Assembly: GCA_964477745.1 (NCBI GenBank)
Contig: CAYZEI010000006.1
Location: 1-55,601 of the forward strand
Length of the DNA stretch: 55,601 bases
Reading direction: 5' to 3'
From: an uncultured Candidatus Saccharibacteria bacterium
GTDB lineage: Bacteria > Patescibacteriota > Doudnabacteria > UBA920
Shown: positions 5,879 to 47,764 of the stretch, piece by piece
Numbering within the stretch: position 1 is the stretch's first letter
Layout: each line of letters opens with the position of its first letter
Made by a program: the position numbers and the translations under genes
The notes under the pieces: generated by a model
The model's database searches: none
What the model saw: only the letters and a program-made list of their open reading frames with translations
What the model was told of the DNA's origin: nothing

Positions 5879-6158
5879 GGTATTAAAAAAGCTTAAGGAA
5901 TAGCTATTTTTCTTTGCAAATTACTCTAAAATTATACCATAATTTTTTAAAAACCACAAAATTTTGCAAAGCCAGGGCAATTTAAGCTTTTTCTTACTTT
6001 TCCACAGCCTAAATTCATAAAGGCTGACCCGGCACAGCTTGAATTTTGCTTTCTAAATCCGTTTTACTCCTACCAGAACCTAAAACCCCAATGCCACACA
6101 ACAATACTTCAACAACAAAAACCCAACCTTTAAACCTCTTACTAAAACAATTTATCTT

Positions 6159-6198
6159 CATTCTACGCGACTCTGTAATTACAGAGTCGGGTAGAATT
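6159..6198. repeat. 40-nt near-perfect palindrome (copy 1 of a 2-copy family)
   Basis: 'attctacgcgactctgtaattacagagtcgggtagaat' has one arm mismatch. 37 of 38 nt are identical to the copy at 6998-7035. It lies just downstream of the PaaX-like gene and upstream of the 1097-aa gene. Confidence 0.9.
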
Positions 6199-6225
6199 GT
6201 CCTAAAATTCAATATTATTAAAATT

Positions 6226-6903
6226 TTAAATAATTCCTTTTTCTTTAAAATGATCTTTCAACTTTTTTAAATCTTCCGGATCTAGTGATACAACCTCCAT
6301 AACTGTGACAAATCTTTCCACTTTATAATACGCCGATGCAAACCCAACTTCCTCCCTCGGGTCAAACGGATAGACCCACACAGTGCGCTGAAGCGGATAC
6401 AAACCCATCCTTTTTACTTTCTGTCTAAATAAATCGGCATTGGAGCGGTATGGATTAGACGGGATATCCGCCAGCGCCAGCCACCAATGCCCATCCCATT
6501 TGCGGGCTCGCTTAATTTGCATAAACCTAAATTGCATCATGTCAATTTGTTTTTGCCCCTTGCCGGTAATTTTTATGGTAAAATCTTTGCCGTTCGGTTC
6601 CAGGATTACATAACCTTTATTTTTTAAATAGTAAAAAGTTTTGGCAATTTTTTTTCGCTGATCATCACGCTTAGTATTCCATTGAGAATAAGTTTTCTTT
6701 CTCCACGGAACTTTATCCAAAATTTGAAACAGATTTGGCGCAACCGCCGCCACGGTAATAACTCCTGCCATCACCGTAACCGCCAAAATCACTTGGGCAA
6801 TATTTTCAAATAATTTAATTTCCGAATTGCTTATTTTAAACTTTTGTTTTGGCGCTCCGGATTTTACTAAATCCGAAATATTTACCTTACTATATTTATC
6901 CAT
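6226..6903 (-). CDS. PaaX-family-like protein (N-terminal TM anchor, winged-helix region, PaaX_C/Cas2-fold-like C-terminus)
   Basis: 225-aa ORF. 'WDGHWWLALADIPSNPYRSNADLFRQKVKRMGLYPLQRTVWVYP' fits the PaaX C-terminal domain pattern W-DG-W-x-IP-x-R-x-LR-x-G-x-VWV-P. The hydrophobic helix is 'VILAVTVMAGVITVAAVAP'. Confidence 0.6.
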   Translation of the reverse strand: MDKYSKVNISDLVKSGAPKQKFKISNSEIKLFENIAQVILAVTVMAGVITVAAVAPNLFQILDKVPWRKKTYSQWNTKRDDQRKKIAKTFYYLKNKGYVILEPNGKDFTIKITGKGQKQIDMMQFRFMQIKRARKWDGHWWLALADIPSNPYRSNADLFRQKVKRMGLYPLQRTVWVYPFDPREEVGFASAYYKVERFVTVMEVVSLDPEDLKKLKDHFKEKGII

Positions 6904-11934: not shown

Positions 11935-14088
11935 TTAAAAGTCCATTGGCTCCACGCTAAGCTCGCCATCATCATCTTTAAAATGATTTTTGGCCAGGCC
12001 CTTGTATTCTATATTACTTTTTGGTAAGACTTTTAAAATCCGTGACGGTGTGTTTACCTGCAAGTTACCAAAGACCCGACGATTTACAGTATACACCAAA
12101 TACAGCCGTTTGCGTGCCCGGGTTAGACCGACATAGGCCAAGCGAACTTCTTCGGAAAGTTCGTCAGGATTTATTAAACTTCTAGAGTGCGGCAAAATTC
12201 CTTCTTCTAACCCGACAAAAAAGACGTTATCAAATTCCAAACCCTTGGCTGAATGCAAAGTCATTAACGTGACCACGTCGCGCGCGTCGTCTTTTTGGTC
12301 AATTTCGGCGAGCAGAGCCACCTCTTCCAAAAATTCCTGCAATGCTTTGGCCCAAGGCAGATTGCGAAATTTATGAGCCACGTTAATTAACTCCTCCACG
12401 TTTTCCCAACGCGACTCACCTTTTTCACTGCCGTCTTTAACCGACCGCTCGTAGCCCATTCTTCTGACAATTTGAGTCATTAGCTCGGGCAAAGTCGACC
12501 GGGCATTAAAATCACTCAGTTCTTCCAAGGTGGCAAAAAACTCCTGCGCCGCGGTAAAAGCTTTGGGCTGAAGTTTTACTTCCGCAAAGTGAGTGCGAAA
12601 ATCTTTTAGGCTCAATTCTTGGCCCGTGGAATTTAAATTTAAAATAAAATCCCTAATTACTGCATACGACTTATCCCCCAAGCCCCTGGCCGGCTCATTA
12701 ATGACACGCTTTAAAGACACCAAGTCGCGATAATTTATAACCAAACGTAAATACCCCAGCATATCTTTAACTTCTTTGCGGTCATAAAATTTTAGCCCCC
12801 CGACAATTTGGTACGGAATCGAGGCTTCAATTAAGGCTTCTTCAATCGCACGACTCTGTGCGTGTGTCCGATATAAAATACAATATTCGGTCAAAGCATC
12901 ATGAGTTTTGGGCAACTGCGGAAGCACTCCACCACTGCCTCGGCTAAAATTCGCGGAAAATTGCGCCTGCATCTTTTTTGCCATAATAAACCGATCCAAA
13001 ATGCTATACCCTTTCTTTGGCGTTATGTCTTCCTCTGCCTCGTATTCCACTTCGGTCTTGGCGGGACTGGCCAGCTTCACTATAGTTCTGGCTACAAATT
13101 CCGCCTCGCCCCGCTCATCCGCCTCGCAGGTTAGGACAATCTTCTCGCCTTGGGGATTTTCCGTCCACAGAGTTTTAGGTTTTTGCTCGGGGTTTAGCTC
13201 AATAACCTTTTGTGCCGCTTCCAGAATATTTTTGGTGGAGCGGTAATTTTGTTCTAATTTGATTACCAAGCTTTCCGGGTAATCCTTTTCAAAATTCAAG
13301 ATGTTAGTAATGTCGCTTCCGCGAAACTTATAAATACTTTGGGCGTCGTCCCCGACTACAAAAATATTGCGGGAGACAGCCAACATCGACAGCAGTAAAT
13401 ACTGCGCCTGGTTAGTGTCCTGATACTCATCTACTAATATATAGGTAAACTTTTTTTGGTATTTTTTTAGCACCTCGGGGAAATTCTGAAAAATTTTCAC
13501 GGTCAGCATTAGCAGATCGTCGAAATCCAGGGCGTTTTGCTTATACAGCGCGTCCTGATAACGGGCATAAACTTCCACCAAACGCTCCCGCAAAGGAGAT
13601 TCCAAGCCCAAATTCAACTCATCCGGGGTTTGGAGCAAATTTTTTCCGCGAGAGATTAGCGCGCCAAACATGGATGCCGGCAATTTTTTACTGTCTATAC
13701 GTAAATCTTCCAATATCTCCTTAATGGTTTTTTGCTGGTCGTCAGTATCAAATATTACAAACCCACTGCCATAACCTAAAGCGGTAATTTCGTGACGCAA
13801 GATCTTGGCGCAAACCGAATGAAAAGTGCCCATGGTTAAACTATCTGCTGCGGTTTTATTTTTGGCCAATAACTTACTAACCCGCTCGCGCATCTGTTTT
13901 GCCGCCTTGTTGGTAAAGGTCAAAGACAAAATATGCTCCGGCGTCACCATCTTCTTCTCTATAATATAAGCAATCCGATTGGTTAAAGTCTTGGTTTTAC
14001 CGCTACCTGGGCCCGCCAAAAGTAAAATCGGCCCCATTGGCGCTGTTACTGCTTCTTTTTGTTTTTCGTTTAAAGAGGTTAAATCCAT
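11935..14088 (-). CDS. uvrD: ATP-dependent DNA helicase, UvrD/PcrA family
   Basis: The Walker A is 'AGPGSGKTKTL'. 'LVDEYQDTN', 'VGDDAQSIYKFRG' and a C-terminal 'VGLTRAR' motif are also present. Confidence 0.92.
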   Translation of the reverse strand: MDLTSLNEKQKEAVTAPMGPILLLAGPGSGKTKTLTNRIAYIIEKKMVTPEHILSLTFTNKAAKQMRERVSKLLAKNKTAADSLTMGTFHSVCAKILRHEITALGYGSGFVIFDTDDQQKTIKEILEDLRIDSKKLPASMFGALISRGKNLLQTPDELNLGLESPLRERLVEVYARYQDALYKQNALDFDDLLMLTVKIFQNFPEVLKKYQKKFTYILVDEYQDTNQAQYLLLSMLAVSRNIFVVGDDAQSIYKFRGSDITNILNFEKDYPESLVIKLEQNYRSTKNILEAAQKVIELNPEQKPKTLWTENPQGEKIVLTCEADERGEAEFVARTIVKLASPAKTEVEYEAEEDITPKKGYSILDRFIMAKKMQAQFSANFSRGSGGVLPQLPKTHDALTEYCILYRTHAQSRAIEEALIEASIPYQIVGGLKFYDRKEVKDMLGYLRLVINYRDLVSLKRVINEPARGLGDKSYAVIRDFILNLNSTGQELSLKDFRTHFAEVKLQPKAFTAAQEFFATLEELSDFNARSTLPELMTQIVRRMGYERSVKDGSEKGESRWENVEELINVAHKFRNLPWAKALQEFLEEVALLAEIDQKDDARDVVTLMTLHSAKGLEFDNVFFVGLEEGILPHSRSLINPDELSEEVRLAYVGLTRARKRLYLVYTVNRRVFGNLQVNTPSRILKVLPKSNIEYKGLAKNHFKDDDGELSVEPMDF

Positions 14089-14552
14089 CTATTTATATTA
14101 TCACAAGAATAACTATTCTCACACTCTAGCCGGATATCTGTTAAGACCCCTATATTACTCCTTATTTAAGCCAAAAGGACATAAATTAAGCCTTAAATAA
14201 GACATTTTTTGCCTGGTTGTGGATGAAATCCTTGCCCTCTCCGGGTGGGGGTGTTAAAATTCAATTTAGAAATTATAGAAACAATTAAAAATATTTACGA
14301 AAGTTAAATTTTAGCTTCGGTTTGATATTTAGAAGCTAAAATTATTTGTTGCCTATCTGTTTACTTTCTTAAATATTTCTTATCATTTCTGACCAGTTTA
14401 GGATTTTAACGGTCATAAATGATAAAGGGGACTTTATTTCCGAGATAAAATCATGGCTAACTCAATTTAAGACGGTTTATACCCGAGTAGCCTTTTTTAT
14501 ACAACAATATAACAAAAAGCTCTTTACTCAAATTAAAAAAAGAGCCCCACAT

Positions 14553-15677
14553 TTGAAAAAGCTACACATTGATAGCTTTCCGGCCATACATATCAAGCAC
14601 ATGGACTGGATGGATTTTTTATTTAAATTCTCCGGCGAATTGCTTGTTTTAATTTTGGCCGTTGTGGTTTCGGTTATGAATTGGCATTTTTTCTCAACTA
14701 AAAATTATCACGATAACAGCCTGGCAGGAAACTTTTTGAGCAATCACTCGGAAATGAATCGCAAGCTCTCGGCTAAAAACAACAGCATTGTTACTTTGGT
14801 ATCTAGTAATAGCTTTGTTCAGCAGGCCATGGCCGAAGATTTTGTCGGGTTAGATTCCCAAGGCCTGGAAGGACAAGACAGCAGTAACGACGGCGCGGAT
14901 ATAATTACCGGGGATGGGACTTCCCTTTTGGCTCCGAACCCGGACAGTGTCAGCAGTTTAATCGCCAAACAGGTTAAAATCTACCAAACTCAGTCCGGCG
15001 ACACCTTGCCGAACGTTGCCAAAAATTTTGGCATTAGCCAGCAAACTATAATGTGGGCAAATAAACTAACCTCCTCAGCTATTAAGCCAGGATGGCAGTT
15101 GTTAATTTTGCCGACAGACGGCGTTTTAATTAAAGCCGATTCCAATACTACTCTACCAGACATTGCCAAAAAATACGGCGTAACCATGGAAAAAATTATT
15201 GCTTATAACGCATTAGACGGCGCGGAAGATATTGAAGCCGGACAAATTGTAATTGTTCCCGGTGGTGTCATGCCGGCACCCCCGGTAGTCAAAAAGGCGC
15301 CGGTAAAAAGAAATGACGGTAAAGTTAAACCCGAGGGCGTACAAAAACCACAAGTGGTAGATAACGGAACCGGACACACCTTCCCTTGGGGTTACTGTAC
15401 TTGGTATGTGGCTACAAAAGTTCATGTTCCTTGGGGTGGAAATGCCAAAGCTTGGCTAACCAATGCTAAAGCTTACGGGGCTGTGGTCAGTAAAACCCCA
15501 TCCGTAGGAACTATTATGGTTTCCACCGAAAGTCGTTTCGGGCATGTCGCTTACGTAGAAAGCGTCGATGATAATGGATTTACTGTTTCCGAGATGAATT
15601 ACGTAAAATTCGGTAAAACCAATACTCGTTGGATTTCCAAAAATAGCCCGGTTATTCGAGGATTTATAAATCCGTAG
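14553..15677 (+). CDS. LysM-domain / CHAP-domain peptidoglycan hydrolase
   Basis: There are two LysM repeats ('YQTQSGDTLPNVAKNFGISQQTIMWANKL' and 'SNTTLPDIAKKYGVTMEKIIAYNAL'). The C-terminal region 'FPWGYCTWYV...GHVAYVESV' is CHAP-like with Cys/His. The start is uncertain (TTG 14553 or ATG 14601). Confidence 0.85.
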   Translation: MKKLHIDSFPAIHIKHMDWMDFLFKFSGELLVLILAVVVSVMNWHFFSTKNYHDNSLAGNFLSNHSEMNRKLSAKNNSIVTLVSSNSFVQQAMAEDFVGLDSQGLEGQDSSNDGADIITGDGTSLLAPNPDSVSSLIAKQVKIYQTQSGDTLPNVAKNFGISQQTIMWANKLTSSAIKPGWQLLILPTDGVLIKADSNTTLPDIAKKYGVTMEKIIAYNALDGAEDIEAGQIVIVPGGVMPAPPVVKKAPVKRNDGKVKPEGVQKPQVVDNGTGHTFPWGYCTWYVATKVHVPWGGNAKAWLTNAKAYGAVVSKTPSVGTIMVSTESRFGHVAYVESVDDNGFTVSEMNYVKFGKTNTRWISKNSPVIRGFINP

Positions 15678-36909: not shown

Positions 36910-37098
36910 GGCTTTATCCTTAGTTGATTAAAGCCGGCGCAGAAACACAAAGCCCCACGCCAGCCGGTCCCTTGCGGAACCCATACCCCTTTCGAGATAT
37001 GACTCGTTGAAAAGTTGCTGGACGTGAGGTCCAGTATTTTCAACGAGTTTTGCGTGCCATGCCCGGGCAGGTTGCTCGGGTTTAGGCATTCAGTTGTA
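36910..37098 (-). promoter_or_regulatory. GC-rich structured 5' leader (candidate cis-regulatory RNA) of the 76-aa gene
   Basis: An 18-bp interrupted hairpin pairs 'actcgttgaaaa..ctggac' with 'gtccag..ttttcaacgagt'. There is also a GCAA-capped hairpin, 'ggttccgcaagggacc'. The putative promoter TTGATA-17-TAAAAT lies at about 37102-37130 on the minus strand. Confidence 0.45.
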
Positions 37099-37752: not shown

Positions 37753-38007
37753 GTGAAACCAGCCCGCGTCAGTCAAAAATTGAAAACTAAAAAACTTAAC
37801 ACCCAATCTTCCGGCTTCAATTCGACCGAAGTTGAACCCGAGTTGTTAAAAGATTCGATCTCCGATAAAAGAATAAGCGAGTATAGGCAAATACTAAAAG
37901 ATAATCATAGCTCTGACGAACAGGTTAAAAAACGCTTAAGCTACCTTGAATCCCTATGCCACAATATTATAAGGCTTGAAATAATAAATTATCAAAATAA
38001 AAAATGA
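37753..38007 (+). CDS. small hypothetical protein upstream of the recombinase
   Basis: 84-aa ORF with a GTG start. Its stop overlaps the recombinase ATG (ATGA). Confidence 0.4.
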   Translation: MKPARVSQKLKTKKLNTQSSGFNSTEVEPELLKDSISDKRISEYRQILKDNHSSDEQVKKRLSYLESLCHNIIRLEIINYQNKK

Positions 38008-39620
38008 GTAAAGCAAGGAAAATAAGAATTATAAATGAAAATTACCCCTACACAAAAGCAATAATATATTGCCGTGTTTCTTCAGAGCGCCAAGTAAACG
38101 ACGGACATGGCTTAGATGGCCAAGGAGTTAGGTGCCATCAAAGAGCTGAATCACAAGGTCTTGAGGTGGTTAAGGTATTCCGTGAAGAAGGTGTGTCTGG
38201 AAAACTGTTTGACCGTCCGGCAATGGCGGAGCTTATAGGGTATTTAGACAATCATGCAAAAGATAGGTTTGTCATTATCTTCGACGACTTAAAACGCTTT
38301 GCGAGAGATTTGGAAGTTCATTTAAAATTGAAAGCGGAGTTAGTTACTAAACGAGGGGCAAAATTGGATTGTCTTAATTTCAATTTTGAAAACAGCCCGG
38401 TTGGTCGGGCAATAGAAAATATTATGGCGGCTACTGCACAATTAGAGCGCGAACAAAATGCAGAGCAAGTTATAAATAAAATGAAAGCACGATTAGAAAA
38501 AGGCTATTGGGCTTTTGGCCGCAGAAAAGGTTATGACATGGTTAAGAATCCTGTTCATGGTATGCTTTCTGTCCCAAACAAAGACGGACAAATATTAAAG
38601 GAAGCTTTAGAAGGTTTTGCAGCAGGGATTTATATCCGCAAAATTGATGTTTGCCGTTTTCTTTTACAGAAGCATTTTTGGAAGACACAAAAAGCCGAAA
38701 AATATATTGATAAAATAACCGATATAATGCGCGATCCTTTTTACGCTGGTCATATTGAATATTCTGCTTGGGAAGTCTCGCGCCGCAAAGGACATCATCA
38801 AGGTATTATTTCCCTTGAGACTTTTGATCTAATACAAAAACGCTTGCGTAAAGTTGACCTAAACCAGCGCATACGTCTTGATACATCGCCAGACTTCCCG
38901 TTGCGTGGAGTAATAATCCACGATGAGTGTAAAGGGCACCTTACGAGCGCCTGGTATCCCAATGGTAAGGGTAAGAAATACCGCAAATATGTTTGCCATA
39001 CTAAGGGTTGCCCAAGCTATAATAAACCTTTCTCCGCAGATGAAATGGAAAGCAAATTTGCAGAGGTTCTGAAAAAGGGAGCTGTAAAAAAGGAAACTGA
39101 TTTGATTTTAAAAAAAATATTTGATCAGGTTTGGGAAGATGAGGTGGCAAAAATAAAGGAGTCGGAGCAAAATTCAGAGCAACAAAAAAGAGCCCTTGAG
39201 AAAAGGCTCTCTGACCTTACAGATTTAATGCTAGCAGCTAAGTCCCCGGCGCTGAAGCGTAATTATGAAAAACAGTCAGTGAAAGCGGCTAGCGAAATTG
39301 AGACAATAGAGGGAAAATCAACGAATGGGATCGACCTAACTATCCCTTATCAAACCGCGTTAGAAAAGGCCACTATGTTGCTAAAAATGCCCTACATTGC
39401 TTGGAAAAAGCTCAATGTCCACGAACAGCACGCCTTGTTTTTTTTCTTTTTTCAGGAAAAACTTCCTTACTCTATAAAAGAGGGTTATCAAACCCATCAA
39501 ATTCCTTATGCTGCAAGGCTATTTGAAGATTTTGTAACCCAAAATACCCAATTGGTGGAGATGCCGGGAGTTAAACCCGGGTCCAAAACTAATTCACTTC
39601 CCAATTATTCACAAGATTAG
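38004..39620 (+). CDS. large serine recombinase
   Basis: The N-terminal resolvase catalytic motif is 'AIIYCRVSSERQVNDGHGLDGQ'. A recombinase domain, a Cys-rich zinc-ribbon region ('CKGHLTS...CHTKGC') and a coiled-coil C-terminus follow. 538 aa. Confidence 0.9.
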   Translation: MSKARKIRIINENYPYTKAIIYCRVSSERQVNDGHGLDGQGVRCHQRAESQGLEVVKVFREEGVSGKLFDRPAMAELIGYLDNHAKDRFVIIFDDLKRFARDLEVHLKLKAELVTKRGAKLDCLNFNFENSPVGRAIENIMAATAQLEREQNAEQVINKMKARLEKGYWAFGRRKGYDMVKNPVHGMLSVPNKDGQILKEALEGFAAGIYIRKIDVCRFLLQKHFWKTQKAEKYIDKITDIMRDPFYAGHIEYSAWEVSRRKGHHQGIISLETFDLIQKRLRKVDLNQRIRLDTSPDFPLRGVIIHDECKGHLTSAWYPNGKGKKYRKYVCHTKGCPSYNKPFSADEMESKFAEVLKKGAVKKETDLILKKIFDQVWEDEVAKIKESEQNSEQQKRALEKRLSDLTDLMLAAKSPALKRNYEKQSVKAASEIETIEGKSTNGIDLTIPYQTALEKATMLLKMPYIAWKKLNVHEQHALFFFFFQEKLPYSIKEGYQTHQIPYAARLFEDFVTQNTQLVEMPGVKPGSKTNSLPNYSQD

Positions 39621-40218
39621 CTAAGTTTAATACCTCTATGACAATAACTTAGCAAATAGTCATAAAGGGTAATTTACGTGTCTTAAGTTTGCGGGTGCAA
39701 ATCAAATCCGCAAACAGCAGTCCTGTATGAACCCGGGTGTCTAAAGTCAGGACGAACTTAAGGCCGGGATCTTAACTTAATAAATTAAGCTAAGACTGGT
39801 TGCAAGTCGGCGTTTTGAAACGCGGCTACAACTTTATTCCATGCGTTAGCATTTGTTTGTGTCCGAGGGATTTACGAGGCTTCAGACTGGCTCGTCTTGC
39901 ATATTAGAAAATGTCAAAGTCCTGTCAAAATCCGTCATCCCCAGTAGAATCACCTTGCAATTGTTCGCTGGTTTTCACCAACAATATTATCACAAGGAAA
40001 TGGATACCAAGAGATGGCCAATAGATTTAAATGCATATACACAGCTCACACTGTTGGTTTGCAAGGTAGCTCTACTGGGCATCCCCGTGGGCTCTATAAT
40101 ACCATAAAATTAGCCTTTTATCAATGCTCTAAGTTGGCTACTTATTATAAGTATAGGCAACAAATGGATCATATCTACATTATGATTCATTCCTTTGCCC
40201 ATTTTTGTTCGATTGATA

Positions 40219-41142
40219 TCATTTAGAAAGGTTTCCCGTTCTTCCATACATTCTCATGTATCTTTGTAATAACGTTTCGCTACCTATTTGCCTAGCCATT
40301 CGCATTATTTTTTCGCTGTGACATGATCTACAGACAGTTTTTAAATTACTTAAGCCATTACTCTTTCCATTTATGTGCTGAACAAAAAGATCCCTGCCAA
40401 ACTTCTCGTAGCTTTCTTCTTGAGTAAGCCCACAATTAGTGCATTTAAAGGCATCCCTTTCTAAAGCTTTTTGTCGATTACCATCAAAATTTAAATGGTC
40501 ATTTGCCTTTCTAAATCTTTCTTTGACTTCTGGCCGAGTTTTATATTCCTCCATATATTCTTTCATTTTTTTCTTCCTATCATCAATGTGCTTTAAAAAA
40601 GAAGTTCGTTGTACTTGTTTAAAATATGGGGATTTAGTATAACATCTCATACAATACCCTCTTATTTTGTGAGGTATGGAGCTAGTTTCACACATCTTGC
40701 ATTCCTCATAGTCTCTAGCCCATCTTTTTTCTTTTCCCATGTTAATTTTCTCAACAATTTCAGGGAAGTATTTTTTTAATAAAACTGAATCAACTCCTAT
40801 GGCTCTTGCGTAAGTACTTACACCAAAGAATTCGGAAGGATCTTGCAATACACTATTCTCCCTTATTTTAATTTCAATACATTCTTTCTCATTTTTAGAT
40901 CTCTGAATATATCTATCGAGTGCGATTTGTTTTATTTCTTCATGAGCTGCAATTTTTAACATTTTCCTGTCTTCTTGACTTAGATAGTAAGTAATATTCA
41001 AACTTGCCTTAATTTCGTTTTCCATTTGATTTACAACGATTTGTTGGATTCTGGATCTTGTAACTTTAAAAACCTTAGAAATTTCTTCCAAAGTTTTTCC
41101 ATTCTTATATAAATTTAAAATCTCCTCATTCCTATTAGACAT
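40219..41142 (-). CDS. HTH / zinc-ribbon / HNH endonuclease protein
   Basis: The N-terminal sigma-r4/LuxR-like HTH is 'GKTLEEISKVFKVTRSRIQQIV'. The zinc ribbon is 'CKMCE...CMRCY'. The C-terminal HNH is 'CTNCG...FVQHINGKSNGLSNLKTVCRSCHSEK'. Confidence 0.8.
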   Translation of the reverse strand: MSNRNEEILNLYKNGKTLEEISKVFKVTRSRIQQIVVNQMENEIKASLNITYYLSQEDRKMLKIAAHEEIKQIALDRYIQRSKNEKECIEIKIRENSVLQDPSEFFGVSTYARAIGVDSVLLKKYFPEIVEKINMGKEKRWARDYEECKMCETSSIPHKIRGYCMRCYTKSPYFKQVQRTSFLKHIDDRKKKMKEYMEEYKTRPEVKERFRKANDHLNFDGNRQKALERDAFKCTNCGLTQEESYEKFGRDLFVQHINGKSNGLSNLKTVCRSCHSEKIMRMARQIGSETLLQRYMRMYGRTGNLSK

Positions 41143-42022
41143 TTAGGTTATTTCTAATCTTGTATACTTCTAACAAACGGTCATCTTTTAAAGCATTTAC
41201 CATCTCTGCTAGATTTGTTATTTTATTGGCGGGCACTAATCTTCTGAATCTATTTCTAGTCTCAACATTCGATTTAAAGAGCACTAGGACCTTACTAACA
41301 AAATCAGCCCAAATCTTAGGTAACTTATTGTTCAATTCAATTTCTGGAACAAATAAATCTTCTTGGGTCAAAGCGGATACAAGCTGGGAAATATTATTCA
41401 AATATTCTCCCTTAGCAGTGGCACGGATGTTTTTAATATCTTTAATTTTGTTTAATTTGAGCAATTGAAAAATACTATTGTAGAAATCCACAAAAGCTTT
41501 TGAATAAGGTTCCATTTCTTTTAATTTCTGAGTCCGGGTATTTTTTATGCCTATTTTCTTGCTTTTTATGCCAATAATTTTTGACTTTATAACTCTAAGT
41601 GATTGATTTGAATTTAATAAAACCAATAATTCAGGATACTCCTTATTGGATAATTTAAATTTTGGATTTTCTAATAAAGGCAAAGCTTCTCTAAACAAGG
41701 AGTAAGAGATTAGCTTGGAGAATTGTCCTTTTATCTGGTTTTTACTTTCAAAGTATTTTTTAATCCTAAGACAATAACTTAAGAAGTCTCGTGTAATATA
41801 ACTCTTTTTAAGTCCTTCTGCTTTGCCATAAATCTGCCAATATAATTTATGCGGCTTATCGTCATGCTCTTTTAAATAATCTTCTAATTTCTTTCCAACT
41901 TCCCACATAATTTCTAAAACGCTGGCACCGCTTGCCCCACTATCAACAAGATCTCTGTACTTGTTATTGAGAGGCGTTATTTGTTCAATTAAATTTAAAA
42001 TGTTAATTTCGTTGTCTTTCAT
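41135..42022 (-). CDS. helical protein of unknown function
   Basis: 295-aa ORF with an 8-nt overlap downstream and a 20-nt overlap upstream. The N-terminus 'EIMWEVGKKL...YGKAEGLKKSYITRDFLSYCLRIKKYF' is only vaguely like the YhcG/DUF1016 N-domain. Confidence 0.65.
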   Translation of the reverse strand: MKDNEINILNLIEQITPLNNKYRDLVDSGASGASVLEIMWEVGKKLEDYLKEHDDKPHKLYWQIYGKAEGLKKSYITRDFLSYCLRIKKYFESKNQIKGQFSKLISYSLFREALPLLENPKFKLSNKEYPELLVLLNSNQSLRVIKSKIIGIKSKKIGIKNTRTQKLKEMEPYSKAFVDFYNSIFQLLKLNKIKDIKNIRATAKGEYLNNISQLVSALTQEDLFVPEIELNNKLPKIWADFVSKVLVLFKSNVETRNRFRRLVPANKITNLAEMVNALKDDRLLEVYKIRNNLNV

Positions 42023-43739
42023 AAGAGTTTATGTCCTTATTTTCAGTTTGACTTTCCAGACTGTTAAGGTTTTTATTTACCCACGGTTGTAGTACCGATT
42101 CTAAAAGATATTCACTATCCGTCAAATCATCAAATAGATCAGTTCTGCTGTTTAATATGGATTGGACTTCGGGCTGCTTTCCTCGCTTGTCAAAAAATTT
42201 ATCTTTAAACCTAATGGCCATTTGAGAAGCTAAGTAAGAAACAAGACGATAGGTAAGTATACGTTCTCCATATCGGTTTACGTGGGCACGTTCCTGAAAG
42301 TCAGGGTGAGTGCTATAGATTACGATCCCTTCGCCCTCGATAAATTGCGACCTTAATGAGGTGCCATCCGCCTTCTTTTGTTCTCTGTCTGAAAATTTTA
42401 CTGGAAAACCACTCTTCTTCTTTTCTTGGCCTTTAAGATCTGTATCGTCATCAGTTTTAATAACAGGAACATCATCGGTTTTGTCTGTTTCTGTTTCATT
42501 ATTTCCGAAGCCTCCGCCCGATTTTTTCTCAAAAAGTAAATCGGAAATATCTGACTCGGACACATTAATATCATCTCCCTGAGTGAGCTCGGTTTTAAAC
42601 TTCAAATTGTATTGGCGAGCGAGTTTTGCTAAAGCCGCTGATAGAATATCCTCTAGTTTACCCATTCCAGTATCAGCAGATTTTTTATTGATTTGGACTA
42701 ACTCTTCGAAAATTTCATCTTCAAAAGACAAAATTTTATCATAAACCATGCTTCTATTTTCCGATCTCTGGAAGTCGTCTCTCGGTAAAGTTGGACTTAT
42801 TAAACCCGCTATATCAATATAGCCAGTCAAATTAGAATGACCCCATAATTGCGAACCATATTTTGACTTATTTCTAAAAGACTTAATACTCTGTATTTCT
42901 TCAATTCTCCGGCCTTTGTTAACAAATATTGGCCTCTTACTCGGTATAATGTCCTCGGTAATCTTTAAATACACTTTTAATGGTAAATCTAATTTTGTAT
43001 TCGTAGTTACCCCTCTTCTCGTACTTGCCAATTCATTAATCTCTTTCTGAACTTTTTTACCAAGAAAATTATCATAATTAAAAGGCTGGCAAATTTCTTC
43101 TTCATTTCCAAAAATAACTTTTATTTCTAAATCTTGCCTAGCTAGGAGTTGTTCAAAATGTTTTTCTATTTCTTCCTTTAGAACTTGTGGATCCACTTCA
43201 TTCCACCAATCCTTTTTAAAACCGCTTATGGTGACTAAGGTTCCTGACTCAAAAGGAAATTTATTTTTAGATAACCTTTTCTCATCTTCTACATCCAAGG
43301 TATTGCTAAAAAGTTCAATATACAAACAATGGTCCATTTCTTTCTGAACCGTGGTAATAGACATCTTATCAGCGCAAGCCATATAAGCGTGAGCGCCGAA
43401 ACCAAACTGACCGTTTAACCAAGAAACGGTCTTTTTATTTGACTTCCCTATACTAGTTACGATAGCCAGGAGTCCATCTTTCCATACACCTTCTTTGGTT
43501 TTTATACCCTTACTCATACCTACACAGTTGTCTGCAAAAGAAACCGTCTTATTTTTAGGATCGATTGTGACTGAAATCTTTATAGGATAAGGATATTTGC
43601 CATATTGATTATAAAGGGTCTCGGCACTATCAAGAGAGTTGTCAATATACTCCATAAATATTCGCATACTGTGTTGGTATATATTGGCTACTTGATTTAG
43701 AAATTCGTTTGTGTCGGCTATAGTTTTTTTATATGGCAT
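42003..43739 (-). CDS. GHKL-superfamily (HATPase_c_3 / MORC-like) ATPase
   Basis: The Bergerat-fold motifs are the N-box 'MEYIDNSLDS', G1 'FADNCVGMS' and G2 'GQFGFGAHAY'. The Met at 43739 is preferred because it removes the overlap with the 76-aa ORF. Confidence 0.8.
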   Translation of the reverse strand: MPYKKTIADTNEFLNQVANIYQHSMRIFMEYIDNSLDSAETLYNQYGKYPYPIKISVTIDPKNKTVSFADNCVGMSKGIKTKEGVWKDGLLAIVTSIGKSNKKTVSWLNGQFGFGAHAYMACADKMSITTVQKEMDHCLYIELFSNTLDVEDEKRLSKNKFPFESGTLVTISGFKKDWWNEVDPQVLKEEIEKHFEQLLARQDLEIKVIFGNEEEICQPFNYDNFLGKKVQKEINELASTRRGVTTNTKLDLPLKVYLKITEDIIPSKRPIFVNKGRRIEEIQSIKSFRNKSKYGSQLWGHSNLTGYIDIAGLISPTLPRDDFQRSENRSMVYDKILSFEDEIFEELVQINKKSADTGMGKLEDILSAALAKLARQYNLKFKTELTQGDDINVSESDISDLLFEKKSGGGFGNNETETDKTDDVPVIKTDDDTDLKGQEKKKSGFPVKFSDREQKKADGTSLRSQFIEGEGIVIYSTHPDFQERAHVNRYGERILTYRLVSYLASQMAIRFKDKFFDKRGKQPEVQSILNSRTDLFDDLTDSEYLLESVLQPWVNKNLNSLESQTENKDINSYERQRN

Positions 43740-43743
43740 AGAT

Positions 43744-43974
43744 TTAAAATGTGAAATGCTTGTGCTTTTTAGGATAGTGGAATTTGGACTTGGTCTCTTT
43801 GACGGACCGTTCAATCTCCGCGAACATCTTATTTACTTCTTCTTCATTGTACTCGTAAGCACTTCTATTTGAGCAATTACTGAGCACTTTTAATTTTTTT
43901 AGAACTTCATTTGTTCTATATGCTCCTAACCGTTTAAAACGTTCTCTTTTGTTGTCTGAAATTTCTTTTGTCAT
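43744..43974 (-). CDS. small basic protein, first gene of the GHKL/HNH operon
   Basis: 76-aa ORF that ends 4 nt before the ATPase start. Confidence 0.5.
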   Translation of the reverse strand: MTKEISDNKRERFKRLGAYRTNEVLKKLKVLSNCSNRSAYEYNEEEVNKMFAEIERSVKETKSKFHYPKKHKHFTF

Positions 43975-44093
43975 AGATTTGCAATTTTATAATAGTAAGT
44001 ATATAATTCTAATGTAAGGATATATCATATTTATACCATTGTCAAGATCCTTATATATGTATATAATCTAATAATAAAATAAGCTTCTAACAA
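43975..44093. promoter_or_regulatory. divergent control region between the two candidate defence modules
   Basis: Two direct copies of 'gtatataat(t)ctaat', each containing TATAAT, lie at 43999-44013 and 44059-44072. They flank the inverted repeat 'taaggat'/'atcctta'. Confidence 0.5.
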
Positions 44094-44882
44094 ATGTACA
44101 ATTTACTCCCCACCCTAAGTCCACAGGACCAGTATCTTCAAGGGATTCTTTCTAAATATAAAGCGGTTCACCCACTTTTAAATCCCCAATTAAATTTAGC
44201 CCAACAGCAAGTAGTTTCTCATATAAAAAATTGGTCGGGAAACCAACTCAGTTCGATAATACTATCGGGGTCCAACGCAAAAGGAACAGCATTGGTAACG
44301 TCTGCTGATGTTGATTTATTTATTTCTTTAAAACCTACTACCGTTGAAAATCTAAGAGAGCTTTATAATAAGCTTGATACAAGGCTTAAAGATTTAGGCT
44401 ATTCAACCTTGCGTCAAAACGTGTCGATTGGCATATATCATAATCACTATAAATTTGACCTTGTGCCAGCAAAGCTACAGCCAGGCCTTACTTCAAACCA
44501 CTCGATATACAAAAGAAAGCAGGATTCTTGGCAACAAACAAATATACATAAACACATTTCGGTAGTGAAAAATTCAGGTAGAATTAATGAAATATTGTTG
44601 GCGAAAAGATGGAGAGAAATTCACAACTTCGAATTTCCATCATTATATGTGGAATTGACCGCCATAGACGCATTAACCGGCTTCAGGATTGGTGATGTGG
44701 CAAATAACTTTTGGCGGTTATTAACTTATTTATCAAATAAATTCATTAGTTCTAGGGTAATCGACCCTGGAAATACAAATAATGCGATCTCAGACGATTT
44801 AACTCTGCAGGAAAAACTCCTAATTTCAAATCAAGCAAAAGCAGACTTACAAAAACAACATTGGGAAAAAATAATTTGGTAA
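44094..44882 (+). CDS. pol-beta superfamily nucleotidyltransferase (SMODS / CD-NTase-like)
   Basis: 'LSGSNAKGTALVTSADVDLF' gives the GS...DxD motif, with the third acidic residue in 'KFDLVPA'. The C-terminal half is helical. 262 aa. Confidence 0.75.
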   Translation: MYNLLPTLSPQDQYLQGILSKYKAVHPLLNPQLNLAQQQVVSHIKNWSGNQLSSIILSGSNAKGTALVTSADVDLFISLKPTTVENLRELYNKLDTRLKDLGYSTLRQNVSIGIYHNHYKFDLVPAKLQPGLTSNHSIYKRKQDSWQQTNIHKHISVVKNSGRINEILLAKRWREIHNFEFPSLYVELTAIDALTGFRIGDVANNFWRLLTYLSNKFISSRVIDPGNTNNAISDDLTLQEKLLISNQAKADLQKQHWEKIIW

Positions 44883-44887
44883 CAAAT

Positions 44888-45634
44888 ATGAGCAAAAATA
44901 AGATCGATATCAAGACAATTTTCTCTGGCCTCCAACAACAAATGGAAGCCCGCCTAACGCTAAATAAAAAGGTTATAAAACACCCAACTACCAAAGGAGA
45001 CGCTTCGGAGTTAGAATGGGCAGATATGTTATCTGTATATTTACCCAAACGATACTGTATTGATAAGGCCTTCGTTATTGATTATGAAGGGAATGTGAGC
45101 GAACAAATCGATTTAGTAATTTTTGACAGACATTATTCACCTTTTATATTAAAACAAAATGGGGCAATCTATTTACCCGCTGAATGTATCTACGCAGTAA
45201 TTGAAATTAAACCAGATTTATCATTATCCCACTTAAAATATGCTGCAAAAAAAGCTACCTCAGTAAGAAAACTAAAAAGAACAACTGCTACTATCGTCCA
45301 AGCAGATAACCAGAAATTTAAACAAAAAGACCCCCCAAAAATATTAGCGGGAATTCTTACTTTAAATGGAAACTTATCGGTTGGTATGAAACAATATCTT
45401 CAAAACCTTAAGGAAGAGAATCGGCTTAATTTTGGGTGTTCCTTATCTGGGGTGCTTTTTACTCAAACTAACTATGACCCCTACGAGGTTGGCGATGTAA
45501 CTTATGAGTTTAAGACTCTGAAAGATAATCCAAATAGCCTAATTTTATTCTTTCTGAACTTACTTCAAGAATTGAGGAAAATGGGGACAGTCCCTGCAAT
45601 GGACTTAGAAAAATATATAAAAAATATAAAATAA
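44888..45634 (+). CDS. PD-(D/E)xK restriction-endonuclease-fold protein (DUF6602-like)
   Basis: 'KGDASELEW...LP..Y', 'QIDLVIFD' and 'IYAVIEIK' give an E...D...ExK arrangement. About 120 aa at the C-terminus are unassigned. The ATG lies 5 nt after the NTase stop. Confidence 0.7.
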   Translation: MSKNKIDIKTIFSGLQQQMEARLTLNKKVIKHPTTKGDASELEWADMLSVYLPKRYCIDKAFVIDYEGNVSEQIDLVIFDRHYSPFILKQNGAIYLPAECIYAVIEIKPDLSLSHLKYAAKKATSVRKLKRTTATIVQADNQKFKQKDPPKILAGILTLNGNLSVGMKQYLQNLKEENRLNFGCSLSGVLFTQTNYDPYEVGDVTYEFKTLKDNPNSLILFFLNLLQELRKMGTVPAMDLEKYIKNIK

Positions 45635-45765: not shown

Positions 45766-47697
45766 CTAACGGGTTACTGTGGTAGTGGCCACCGCCCCGC
45801 TCAGCGTTGGGAGGTTTGAATCTCCATACGCTAGCGGAATGGTATAGCCAATCGGTACCACGAATGCCGTCACCATATCGGCTTCTTCGTCGACACCTCC
45901 GGTGTCGATGTCGCAGATAAAACTTCCATCTGCATTTATTGTTGTTCCAGGGGAACTCCAATATGGTTTTGTCCACCACCATCCGCGAACGCGGATGTAG
46001 ACCGCGACCTGGTAGTCACTCGGCAGTACGTGCAGGACCGTTCCTGCAACGCTCCCATTGAGTGCATACCTTGGGGTTACAGATGTGAACTGGATGGATG
46101 CCTTGCCCGGTCCACCAGGGATGGGGTTAGGCGTTGGTGTGGGAGTTGGCGTCGGCGTTGGAGTGGGAGTTGGCGTGGGGTTTGGACCGGGTGCTGGAGT
46201 TTGAACAGGAACCGTTGGGCTCCAGTTGTCCGGAATGGTCTTACCGGAAAACACATCCAACATACCAGGTTTCAAATTCCCTTCCGAATCAAGTACTCCC
46301 CAGTTCTTTCCTTGCGGACCTTCATACCGCTCCTTCCACGGTTCGTCGTACGCTTCAAAGTAGAAGTATTTGACGTTCCGTGCACGCGCCCAAGACACAA
46401 AGTTCAAAAAGTACTGAGACGCATTCCTGGCGGAAGGCACCGCAGTATTGATGGTGTTGCCGGCACTCGGCCAACCGGTTTCGGAAACGATGATCTCCTT
46501 ATTCGGGTACTTGGCCTTGAGTTTTTCGTAGTTGGAATTGAGAGATATCATCGCCTCTTCAATTTTCGTCCCCTCCCAGTATGGGTAGGAGTTGAAGAGA
46601 ACTACGTCGCTTACGGCAACCACTTCCGGGTGGTCGTAGAGCGAAGCGAAGGTGTCAGCCGTGGCGACGATCGCCCCCGGAGCAGACTGCTTAACCCATG
46701 AAATATACGTGGCGAGTTGCGGGCCGGTAAGGTCCCGGCGATACAGCGTCTCCGAACCGACAATCAGCATCCCACCATAGCCGGCTTTGTAAGACGCAAG
46801 CATACTTTGAAGTTCCAGATCGTTGGCCTGGCTGTTGTTGTTTAACCAAGCACTGAGAACTGCTTTGACTCCATAGCGCTTGCAAATCTTCCCAAACATC
46901 TCCATGCCGTTGGTGTTGCCGTAGGCGCGAAGCCACTGAGTATATGGAGCGAGCCGACTAATCCGCTCGTCCAGTTGCTCTTCGCTTACTACAAAGCCCG
47001 TAGCCGGATCCTGAGTTCCGATGTACGGACCAAAGTCCAGCCCGTGCAAAACATAACTGACCGGCGTGCCCACCGTAAACGAGATTGGGTTGGACTCGTC
47101 GCCCGTGGTGAACCGGAGCCACTCCACCCAACCTCCTTCGGAGGTTTTGGGGAATGCCCCAGACAAGTACCACGCGCCCTTGTCGTCCGTCTTGCCAAGG
47201 CTTTGGCAGGAATAAGCACTTGCTCCTTGCGAAGCGCAGTGCTCAACCAAGGCATTCGGGATTCCACCGGTGTACTTGAGTATCCAACCTTGGTTGGGGG
47301 TAAAGTTGCCCCCGACCGAATTGTTTATCGTGAGTGTCCCCAAGGTGGGAACGCTAACGGTAAAAGCAATCCTGTTGGACGTTGCGCCGGATGGAAATTC
47401 CATCCATTGCACCCAGGTGCCTTCCGTGCCGGGGGTGAACGTCCCTGTGGCTTTCCAGACGCCCTTGGCGTCCGTTTTGCCAAAATTCGGCACGCATAGG
47501 GGTACGCGATCCCGAATTTCGCAGTAGGTGAACACCGCATCTGAATGCGGGCTCACGAGTTCGAGCGTCCAGGCTTGCCCCTTGGCAAAACCGCCACCGA
47601 CTCCACCGTTAATGGTCAAACTCCCGTTGATAACGGGAGCGCCATAGAGACTGACCGCCATAGTTATGACAGCCAGAATGCCTCTGACTTTCTGCAT
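45766..47697 (-). CDS. secreted glycoside hydrolase family 17 (beta-1,3-glucanase-like) with two N-terminal ~95-aa repeats, a Pro-Thr linker and a C-terminal beta-rich domain
   Basis: 'KEIIVSETGWPSAG' matches the GH17 nucleophile signature. The signal peptide is 'MQKVRGILAVITMAVSLYGAP' after the SD 'aaggaggg'. The linker is 'PNPTPTPTPTPTPTPTPNP'. Confidence 0.85.
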   Translation of the reverse strand: MQKVRGILAVITMAVSLYGAPVINGSLTINGGVGGGFAKGQAWTLELVSPHSDAVFTYCEIRDRVPLCVPNFGKTDAKGVWKATGTFTPGTEGTWVQWMEFPSGATSNRIAFTVSVPTLGTLTINNSVGGNFTPNQGWILKYTGGIPNALVEHCASQGASAYSCQSLGKTDDKGAWYLSGAFPKTSEGGWVEWLRFTTGDESNPISFTVGTPVSYVLHGLDFGPYIGTQDPATGFVVSEEQLDERISRLAPYTQWLRAYGNTNGMEMFGKICKRYGVKAVLSAWLNNNSQANDLELQSMLASYKAGYGGMLIVGSETLYRRDLTGPQLATYISWVKQSAPGAIVATADTFASLYDHPEVVAVSDVVLFNSYPYWEGTKIEEAMISLNSNYEKLKAKYPNKEIIVSETGWPSAGNTINTAVPSARNASQYFLNFVSWARARNVKYFYFEAYDEPWKERYEGPQGKNWGVLDSEGNLKPGMLDVFSGKTIPDNWSPTVPVQTPAPGPNPTPTPTPTPTPTPTPTPNPIPGGPGKASIQFTSVTPRYALNGSVAGTVLHVLPSDYQVAVYIRVRGWWWTKPYWSSPGTTINADGSFICDIDTGGVDEEADMVTAFVVPIGYTIPLAYGDSNLPTLSGAVATTTVTR

Positions 47698-47764
47698 AGG
47701 GCCCTCCTTAGGGGACTTCATTATAGTACAAACAGGACACCTACTCAAATCCTAAATTTAGGGA

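Follow-up and report, generated by a model that had tools for sequence, protein, structure and literature searches.

Iyer, Abhiman & Aravind (2008) predicted that MORC and paraMORC ATPases, in which a GHKL domain is joined to an S5 domain, operate in restriction-modification (R-M) operons, including type III operons and operons with HNH genes (PMC2292703), and links of GHKL+S5 ATPases to Ymh were added in 2013 (PMC3710099). Here, these and other described systems are compared with a four-gene operon found at positions 40219-43974 on the minus strand of contig CAYZEI010000006.1, from an uncultured Candidatus Saccharibacteria bacterium; the whole stretch analysed, 55,601 nucleotides (nt) long, is called the window. 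The four genes, g1 to g4, encode a small basic protein, a GHKL ATPase, an orphan helical protein and an HNH protein. We tentatively read the operon as methylase-less and paraMORC-like, one of a family of GHKL-ATPase conflict (defence) cassettes that has no name yet and moves horizontally, a reading that is plausible but falls short of being probable.

Several other systems bring related components together. Septu consists of PtuA, an ABC-type ATPase, and PtuB, an HNH protein. The Mza system (MzaA-E), attributed to Gao et al. 2020, reportedly unites a sigma-70-family protein and a GHKL ATPase resembling MutL. Ambrosia, which has been validated by experiment, comprises AbrR, a methyltransferase (MTase), an HK/Hsp90-like HATPase, a REC protein and an HNH protein, and it needs its methylase, its response-regulator REC protein and its XRE regulator (bioRxiv 10.1101/2025.09.30.679545). 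In VcSduA, the type I-D Shedu, a GHKL domain is fused to a DUF4263 nuclease; its anti-phage activity is validated, and mutation of the ATPase glutamate served as a test (PMC12137116). Finally, CapK-CapS pairs a small GHKL protein resembling anti-sigma-factor kinases with a STAS-domain DNA-binding repressor (PMC13373217).

The operon and its proteins

The genes of the operon, and the domains recognised in g2 and g4 (residue numbers are those of each protein; aa, amino acids; ORF, open reading frame; HTH, helix-turn-helix), are as follows:

43744-43974, minus strand: g1, the operon's first gene, a 76-aa basic protein (ORF call)
42003-43739, minus strand: g2, a GHKL ATPase of 578 aa that also has a transducer and, at its C-terminus, an orphan domain (ORF from an ATG)
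43140-43739, minus strand: g2 residues 1-200, Bergerat-fold ATP-binding domain with E30 of the N-box, D70 of the G1 box, G110-G115 of the G2 box and T167 (alignment A1, PDB matches)
42612-43139, minus strand: g2 residues ~201-376, transducer (S5-like) domain and long helix (Foldseek, alignment)
42006-42467, minus strand: g2 residues 425-578, family-specific C-terminal domain (alignment A4)
41135-42022, minus strand: g3, a 295-aa all-helical, arginine-rich orphan protein (ORF call)
40219-41142, minus strand: g4, a 307-aa protein with a sigma-70 region-4-like HTH, a CxxC..CxxC zinc ribbon and an HNH nuclease domain (Pfam)
41029-41133, minus strand: g4 residues 4-38, sigma-70 region 4.2-like HTH, LYKNGKTLEEISKVFKVTRSRIQQIV (Pfam, alignment A5)
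40630-40722, minus strand: g4 residues 141-171, zinc ribbon in which C148, C151, H158, C164 and C167 are invariant (A5)
40309-40476, minus strand: g4 residues 223-278, HNH beta-beta-alpha-metal domain (C234, C237, D251, H256, N-loop, C271, C274, H275)

ORF calling reproduced exactly the coordinates and the three junctions from which an earlier sequence-only reading had proposed a tightly coupled minus-strand operon: a 4-nt gap between g1 and g2, a 20-nt overlap between g2 and g3 and an 8-nt overlap between g3 and g4. The longest ORF of g2 begins at a TTG at 43814, upstream of the ATG; the ATG is preferred because the N-termini of homologues and the gene calls on three public contigs of the same sequence agree on it. 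As each of the four ORFs has conserved homologues elsewhere, all are taken to be real genes. The products of g1, g3 and g4 are basic (isoelectric point, pI, of 9.75, 9.65 and 9.46, respectively), whereas that of g2 is acidic (5.70). The descriptions that the same reading gave of the proteins also held: g1 has the length and the basic character claimed, the g2 strings EYIDNSLDS, DNCVGMS and GQFGFGAHAY, taken as signs of a Bergerat fold, fall on invariant columns of a 24-sequence alignment, g3 is a helical protein in which Pfam recognises nothing, and g4 is the predicted fusion of HTH, zinc ribbon and HNH nuclease. The operon as an observation, with its genes, junctions and intact GHKL and HNH motifs, is confirmed.

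The g2 protein scores 26.9 bits against Pfam HATPase_c_3 (cut-off 25) and has 228 full-length homologues. The ATP-binding and catalytic residues do not vary among relatives of 34-72% identity. In alignment A1, with 24 members that share 36-73% of their residues with the window protein, residues E30, D33, N34, D70, G74, G110, F112, G113, G115 and T167 are invariant, and all four motifs of the GHKL superfamily are present in g2: I (the N-box Glu/Asn), II (DxGxG), III (the G-rich lid) and IV (Thr). The best PDB sequence matches are Hsp90 N-domains, the top one being 3h80 (E 1e-7). Further along, the transducer region keeps the motifs KGRRIEEI, W..H.NLTGY and P..RDDF throughout the family, with G276, R277, R278, E281, W299, H301 and R320 invariant in A1. 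The AlphaFold2 (AF2) model of g2 (predicted local distance difference test, pLDDT, 76) matches full-length Hsp90, TRAP1 and GRP94 as well as the 43-kDa fragment of GyrB/ParE at E ~1e-14 to 1e-15 in Foldseek, the alignment covering GyrB 43K and the N and M domains of Hsp90 with a TM-score normalised to the target of 0.50-0.55. By this model, with a GHKL domain followed by a transducer of the S5 fold, g2 belongs to the class of GHL-type clamp ATPases (GyrB/Hsp90/MutL/MORC). Its C-terminal domain follows the pattern GF.I.F...RS...I.IY..HPDF..R...RL.SYLA...YKD.F...QPE (A4) and had no match in PDB or Pfam by profile searches; it was detected in 90 of 91 GHKL ORFs tested, the sole exception being the locus L081. 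A role as docking domain for g3 was ruled out, as the domain is present in 27/27 GHKL proteins that lack g3.

The best matches to g2 in sequence and structure are Hsp90-family and GyrB/ParE proteins, and a Chloroflexi branch of its own family lies in a conserved, non-mobile neighbourhood, both of which would suit a housekeeping GHKL protein (HtpG, MutL or a gyrase/topoisomerase subunit) in an ordinary operon. That explanation is effectively refuted and keeps virtually no probability. The GQFGFG lid motif of g2 resembles that of Hsp90. Its matches do not go beyond the ATPase and transducer core, where identity is 13-17%, and the client-binding C-terminal domain of Hsp90/HtpG and the Toprim domain of GyrB/ParE are absent, as are MutL_C and the GyrB C-terminal domains (Pfam). 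The HtpG model NCBIfam NF003555 has a cut-off of 371 bits; g2 reaches 24 bits, over residues 30-134 only. A patchy distribution, a low-GC island context and the dedicated orphan partners g1 and g3 likewise speak against a housekeeping function.

For g4, Pfam gives 23.4 bits to HNH (cut-off 21.4), over residues 234-278, and 22.0 bits to Sigma70_r4, just below its cut-off of 24.1. CxxC pairs start at residues 148, 164, 234 and 271, and the HNH histidine is residue 256. By these motifs g4 is a member of the HNH (beta-beta-alpha-metal) nuclease family, which is defined by a catalytic His, Asn and His/Asn and a CxxC...CxxC zinc site, and its catalytic set is intact. The PHROG family phrog_8446, also HNH, covers residues 12-277 (E 5e-10), and among PADLOC models g4 matches only the generic HNH parts of ZorE and DpdF.

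Both g1 and g3 are orphans. The g1 protein carries the signature RERFKRLA..RTN..L..L..LGNCSNRS.Y.Y., and profile searches of Pfam and PDB returned no significant match to it. Copies of g1 are, in the median, 63% identical to that of the window, versus 36% for g2 and 39% for g3 (n=40 loci); despite this, g1 is missing from about 40% of complete loci. As for g3, none of its 114 homologues has a Pfam domain or an informative name, and an exhaustive hidden Markov model (HMM) search of 1.84 billion proteins delimited a family of 188 representative clusters of ~290 aa. By that search the family is closed, with no remote relatives beyond these clusters and with a single informative fusion, the 409-aa metagenomic protein P0391, in which a sigma-70 region-4 HTH protein with an HNH_repeat-like segment is joined to the C-terminal half of g3. 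The AF2 model of g3 (pLDDT 93.1) has 15 helices; Foldseek found no match to it in PDB (best E 0.75) or BFVD (best E 0.19), with TM <0.2, and profile searches against PDB sequences and Pfam found nothing. The conserved motifs are SYITRDF, N.R.Q and RNRFRR, the invariant residues being mostly arginines.

A conserved cassette with changing partners

A total of 153 loci was assembled from a GHKL-alignment scan of GTDB species genomes, a g3-alignment scan of metagenomes and exact-protein look-ups, and non-redundant g3 loci were then defined by our own ORF calling and HMM searches. There are 102 of the latter, and wherever upstream sequence exists a g2 ORF lies directly 5' of g3, bar two decayed loci (L056, L074). 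In 40 of the 67 complete loci, g1 lies directly 5' of g2. The order g2-g3 is thus kept far beyond this genome and across many phyla. The sequence-only reading had taken all four genes as the unit, which did not stand: judged from this comparison, what is conserved is g2 together with g3, whether or not g1 accompanies them, and g4 occurs in one clade only.

Host metagenome-assembled genomes belong to many lineages of Patescibacteria, to Ignavibacteriota, Actinomycetota, Nitrospirota/Thermodesulfovibrionia, Acidobacteriota and Bacteroidota, and further to Omnitrophota, Planctomycetota, Bdellovibrionales, Gastranaerophilales and others; the genome that the window comes from is Candidatus Doudnabacteria-like. 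The cassette was seen in uncultured lineages only, and its distribution is patchy across phyla. It was found in none of 50,697 phage records and none of 72,556 plasmid records (bar a weak HtpG match), and viral contigs of IMG/VR gave 1 match among 2.9 million.

Immediately 3' of g3, at a distance of 0-35 nt, the gene varies among loci, and many loci have nothing co-directional downstream. The partners found at this position are:

Type III Mod then Res, 13 loci (PADLOC MTase_III E 8e-193, REase_III E 3e-288)
Dam, 3 loci
N6_N4 methylase
Ymh, of the HEPN family (PMC3710099), with an 8-nt overlap
PycTM (E 1e-27)
Schlafen/AlbA_2
Ser/Thr kinase like mad6/PD-T4-6
Trypsin-like protease
DUF2130; in other loci, proteins without an assigned family
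L093, 7842-8348: LAGLIDADG ORF overlapping the end of g3

Of these partners, the type III Mod and Res, PycTM, kinase, protease, Ymh/HEPN, Schlafen, Dam and N6_N4 genes are bona fide immune components. When the GHKL proteins are arranged by neighbour joining, each of four partner types (type III, HNH, Dam and degenerate HNH) is confined to one clade, the type III clade being deep; partner associations are therefore stable over long divergence. These clades also qualify the earlier statement that the operon has no methyltransferase. It is correct for the window clade, a phmmer search of the window ORFs having returned neither a type III Mod nor Dam, an N6_N4 methylase or a Res helicase, so that the Mod + Res pair of a type III R-M system is absent there, but it does not extend to sister clades with type III Mod-Res, Dam or N6_N4. 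The LAGLIDADG ORF of L093 is absent from the near-identical L094 and looks like a recent selfish insertion, at the position that dedicated partners hold elsewhere.

This insertion bears on g4, which could be a selfish, homing-type HNH gene that landed downstream of a GHKL/g3 pair with another cellular function, the neighbours being unrelated. Selfish nucleases do insert after g3, as L093 and L094 indicate, g4 resembles phage HNH families over most of its length (phrog_8446), and it is confined to one clade. The explanation is nevertheless quite improbable. Only four close homologues of g4 were found among 5.8 billion proteins, and all of them lie directly 3' of g3 (L001/L002, L089, L151-153). 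With g4 copies only 52-54% identical, the junctions to g3 still measure -8, 0 and -23 nt, which argues for a long co-inheritance of g3 and g4. No free-standing copies of g4 in phages are apparent in the five-hit homologue list, from which this is judged, phage records not having been searched with g4. Furthermore, the partner proteins that follow g3 in L040, L060 and L137 have the sigma-4 HTH and the zinc ribbon in common with g4; they have lost the HNH histidine and the N-loop and gained domains resembling the C-terminal domain of RNA polymerase alpha (alpha-CTD) and the DnaA-C HTH, and they too are dedicated neighbours of g3. In the Dam clade another sigma-4/alpha-CTD protein sits before the GHKL gene, and in P0391 a sigma-4 HTH is fused to g3 itself. 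Because of these three sets of proteins, a sigma-4-type DNA-binding subunit is seen as a recurrent, and probably physical, partner of g3. The g4 gene itself is an add-on of one small clade, and not part of the conserved core.

Some GHKL relatives lack g3 altogether. The Chloroflexi loci of this kind (L042, L046-L048, L050, L052, L053, L058, L059) share a conserved neighbourhood, with products that, on a reading of their sequences, resemble acetate kinase, an EutJ-like protein, an oxidoreductase, an AraC-type response regulator and a histidine kinase. The Ignavibacteria loci without g3 (L062-L069, L075, L080) have other small partners and adjoin a protein homologous to the Pfam-confirmed tyrosine integrase of L001.

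Comparison with described systems

None of the 5027 PADLOC models (2023 catalogue) matches g1, g2 or g3, g4 being matched in the window only as a generic HNH protein, and literature on GHKL, MORC or HATPase_c_3 proteins with defence or type III R-M yielded no description of the g1-g2-g3 cassette. The claim that the operon fits no named system therefore stands as far as PADLOC, profile and architecture tests are concerned, all of which failed to place it; its novelty is lessened by the restriction-like idea for GHKL+S5 ATPases, which dates from 2008 and already included HNH genes (PMC2292703).

The closest likeness is to the MORC/paraMORC ATPases of that paper. Like them, g2 has an N-terminal GHKL domain, a transducer/S5 domain and a family-specific C-terminal extension, and matches Pfam HATPase_c_3; the distribution of the cassette is likewise sporadic and driven by horizontal transfer, and type III Mod/Res, adenine methylases, HNH and Ymh HEPN proteins are found as neighbours in both cases. 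Individual families described there fit less well. The S5 motif of MORC, GhXhhpXXRhl (taken from PMC2292703), occurs in 0/24 members of the g2 family in a regex search. The ExxxH of paraMORC2 occurs in only 10/24 members, with no conserved column of that pattern. The REase-fold (E-D-ExK) or TIR domain of paraMORC3/paraMORC4 is absent from the g2 C-terminus, where the conserved residues are G, H, F, R, K and Q/P and not E-D-ExK. The HxH of paraMORC5 is found in 1/24 members, the conserved motif being HPDF..R instead. For paraMORC1, compared by description, the architecture of g2 and its HNH/methylase context would be compatible with membership. The cassette further differs in having two dedicated orphan partners, g1 and g3, which go unmentioned in the available part of PMC2292703, and it is known from uncultured lineages only.

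With Septu, the window operon shares the combination of an HNH nuclease with an NTPase thought to sense or license, and the lack of a methylase. It differs in that its ATPase is of the GHKL and not of the ABC/AAA_15 type, in its two extra orphan subunits, and in the sigma-4 HTH and zinc ribbon of its HNH protein; Septu was set aside, no PADLOC match to PtuA or PtuB being found in the window. The likeness to Mza consists of a weak match of the g4 HTH to the region-4 part of NCBIfam MzaA (E 1.3e-3). Mza was ruled out on gene content and model searches, g2 not being MzaB. Ambrosia also holds an HATPase-type protein and an HNH endonuclease in one operon, whereas the window operon has no methylase, REC protein or XRE regulator and its g3 is all-helical, not of the REC fold; Ambrosia and the two-component-like HEF_HK/Response_reg_2 systems were ruled out for want of REC, HK and methylase. 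The GHKL ATPase of VcSduA/type I-D Shedu is, like g2, proposed as a nuclease gate, but VcSduA is a single polypeptide with a PD-(D/E)xK nuclease, without the transducer-plus-C-terminal-domain arrangement and without equivalents of g1 and g3. Zorya type II was rejected as g4 matches just the HNH part of ZorE (E 9e-5, residues 193-299) and the membrane proteins ZorA and ZorB were not found, and CapK-CapS as g2 has 578 aa and a transducer and no STAS domain was found in g1, g3 or g4 (Pfam).

Genomic setting and possible function

The operon shares a block of 30-36% GC (40.0-45.7 kb) with a two-gene CBASS, flanked by ~40% GC on the left and 50-54% on the right. The features around it are:

38004-39620, plus strand: large serine recombinase
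39553-39942, minus strand: transfer-messenger RNA (tmRNA) gene (Rfam 137 bits), between the recombinase and g4
43975-44093, no strand: 119-bp AT-rich spacer that separates g1 from the divergent CD-NTase gene and carries promoter-like hexamers placed back to back
44094-45634, plus strand: CD-NTase + NucC pair, a two-gene CBASS (PADLOC E 5e-79 and E 4e-83)

The hexamers of the spacer, which are consensus matches only, are TTGACA..TATCCT at 44045-44017 on the minus strand and TTGTCA..TATAAT at 44039-44067 on the plus strand. The CBASS pair is divergent from g1, and no HORMA/TRIP13 was seen with it. Outside the block, a full-length match to LOOT RNA (RF03000; 90 bits, gathering score 46.4) lies at 36966-37088 on the minus strand, in the region downstream of the tmRNA gene and beside ORFs without assigned function. 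On the other side, a 660-aa ORF that encodes a GH17-like domain and a long linker of PT repeats occupies 45766-47748 on the minus strand, and the stretch of 46-51 kb that abuts the operon/CBASS block has 49-54% GC, against ~40% in the rest of the window.

The tmRNA gene, which the sequence-only reading had missed, changes the picture of an accessory island given there. The recombinase ORF and the tmRNA gene, which are on opposite strands, overlap at their 3' ends by 68 nt, and the recombinase-marked island thus lies downstream of ssrA, on the side away from the operon. The recombinase and the CD-NTase/NucC pair are indeed neighbours of the operon, as stated, but the island that the recombinase marks is across the tmRNA gene from it. 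No att-type direct repeats of the tmRNA 3' end were found in the window (blastn-short), a result that is uninformative; serine integrases need no such repeats. Elsewhere, 11 of 63 loci have a serine recombinase homologous to that of the window, or a tyrosine integrase, at 0.3-6 kb from the cassette. Two loci show the cassette within an island, the recombinase ORF of which overlaps a transfer RNA (tRNA) gene:

L029: recombinase ORF 5331-6869; overlapped tRNA 5343-5417, convergent
L061: recombinase ORF 13810-15339; overlapped tRNA 15299-15373, convergent

The overlapped genes are tRNA-Gly and tRNA-Glu. Taken with the window, this arrangement suggests a family of serine-integrase islands in which the integrase gene spans the tRNA or tmRNA attachment site.

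It might then be asked whether the beneficiary is the mobile element carrying the cassette, and not the host, in maintenance, exclusion of competitors or anti-defence, with g4 acting for the element. The nearby recombinases and integrases, the cassettes of L029 and L061 inside islands bounded by an overlapped tRNA gene, and the patchy distribution across phyla are in line with such a role. It is nonetheless rather improbable: the viral contigs gave a single match and the phage and plasmid records none, 52 of the 63 loci have no recombinase nearby, the window operon is on the non-island side of the tmRNA gene, and a cargo position near integrases is equally typical of defence genes.

The CBASS neighbour raises a different alternative, in which g1-g2-g3 (with g4) would be a sensor or regulator of the adjacent immune operon (CBASS here, type III R-M elsewhere) and not an effector system, by a logic likened to that of CapW/BrxR, CapH-CapP, CapK-CapS or MORC-type silencing. 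CBASS is near three of the four distinct HNH-clade members, L001 being the exception, and near none of ~95 other cassette loci; its cyclases and effectors differ among these members, with NucC in the window, SAVED in L089 and SLATT in L152:

L152, 2011-3370: SMODS+SLATT, 8 nt after the HNH gene
L089, 11656-14048: SAVED+SMODS, 7.6 kb away

The cassette is also nearly always 5' of its variable neighbours, several of which are complete systems (Mod+Res, or SMODS+SLATT in L152), g1 and the CD-NTase gene diverge from overlapping promoter-like sites, the recurrent partners are purely DNA-binding (sigma-4, alpha-CTD and DnaA-C domains), and GHKL-type regulators upstream of immune operons have a precedent (PMC13373217). 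CapK, however, is a small GHKL protein resembling anti-sigma kinases with a STAS substrate, hence of another architecture, and a 578-aa clamp ATPase with a catalytically intact HNH protein would make a heavy and odd regulator. In many loci, moreover, no immune operon adjoins the cassette, and the association with CBASS is based on four clade members only. All in all, a purely regulatory role is unlikely, though it is the main rival and deserves to be kept in mind.

The preferred reading, that of a defence cassette, would work as follows. The g2 protein would be an ATP-operated dimerising clamp of the Hsp90/GyrB/MutL/MORC type, which, with the obligate basic helical g3 and usually with g1, may form a nucleic-acid-engaging complex for sensing or licensing; g3, and usually g1 too, would engage nucleic acid and/or bridge g2 to its partners. 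In the window, g4 would be coupled to this complex and held on DNA by its sigma-4-type HTH and zinc ribbon, and its HNH domain may cut invading DNA, or cellular DNA in an abortive mode, once the ATPase complex engages its target. In sister clades, the g1-g2-g3 module would be wired to type III Mod-Res, Dam/N6_N4, the HEPN (Ymh) RNase or other immune genes. That the proteins form a complex, that g1 and g3 bind DNA, that ATP controls the licensing of the nuclease and that phages or plasmids are warded off are all put forward as predictions; the gene structure, the domain identities, the intact catalytic motifs, the g2-g3 order, the clade-stable exchange of partners and the mobile or defence-rich neighbourhoods are features of the loci themselves.

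A number of points weigh against this reading. The defence role is drawn from context alone, no PADLOC model covers g1-g3, and DNA binding by g1 and g3 is suggested by a basic pI and conserved arginines, which are the only hints of it. Many g2-g3 loci, with or without g1, have no recognisable nuclease or other effector, which implies that the core must have an activity of its own or work with unlinked genes, and two GHKL branches (Chloroflexi and Ignavibacteria) occur without g3 in other contexts. Most host genomes appear compact, which makes a short distance between genes a poor argument for coupling, and several partners (type III R-M, CBASS) are self-sufficient and may be mere island neighbours. 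Lastly, for a nuclease without a methylase, the logic by which self is told from non-self is a further difficulty.

A more speculative idea, to which we give a low probability, is that g2-g3(-g1) is a portable MORC-like, ATP-driven DNA clamp acting as a general infection sensor or gate for the adjacent immune operon, be it HNH, type III R-M, CBASS, HEPN or another. Its companions, which would copy DNA-binding modules of the host (sigma-70 region 4, RNA polymerase alpha-CTD, DnaA domain IV), might serve as decoys and report phage factors that hijack host transcription or replication, and the unusually conserved g1 might contact a conserved host or phage target.

The cassette is real and non-housekeeping, and for the present it is best filed with the GHKL-ATPase restriction-like systems, as one with two orphan subunits that are here joined by a sigma-4-HTH/zinc-ribbon/HNH effector. 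If functional, it would add to immunity a module that has no name and that includes two orphan families, one of which, g3, has a confidently predicted fold without a counterpart in PDB or BFVD. In this survey it occurs mainly in Patescibacteria and other uncultured lineages, on which we know of no defence screens. Being common in bacteria of the candidate phyla radiation, it is a good candidate for experiments, if no conceptual surprise. A functional cassette would also offer a tractable case for the 2008 prediction that prokaryotic MORC-like GHKL clamps drive restriction-like immunity (PMC2292703), of which the literature searched showed no test on free-standing GHKL+S5 proteins, and the clade-stable swapping of partners (HNH, type III R-M, Dam, HEPN) amounts to a natural experiment on how an ATPase sensor is wired to different effectors, with and without DNA methylation.

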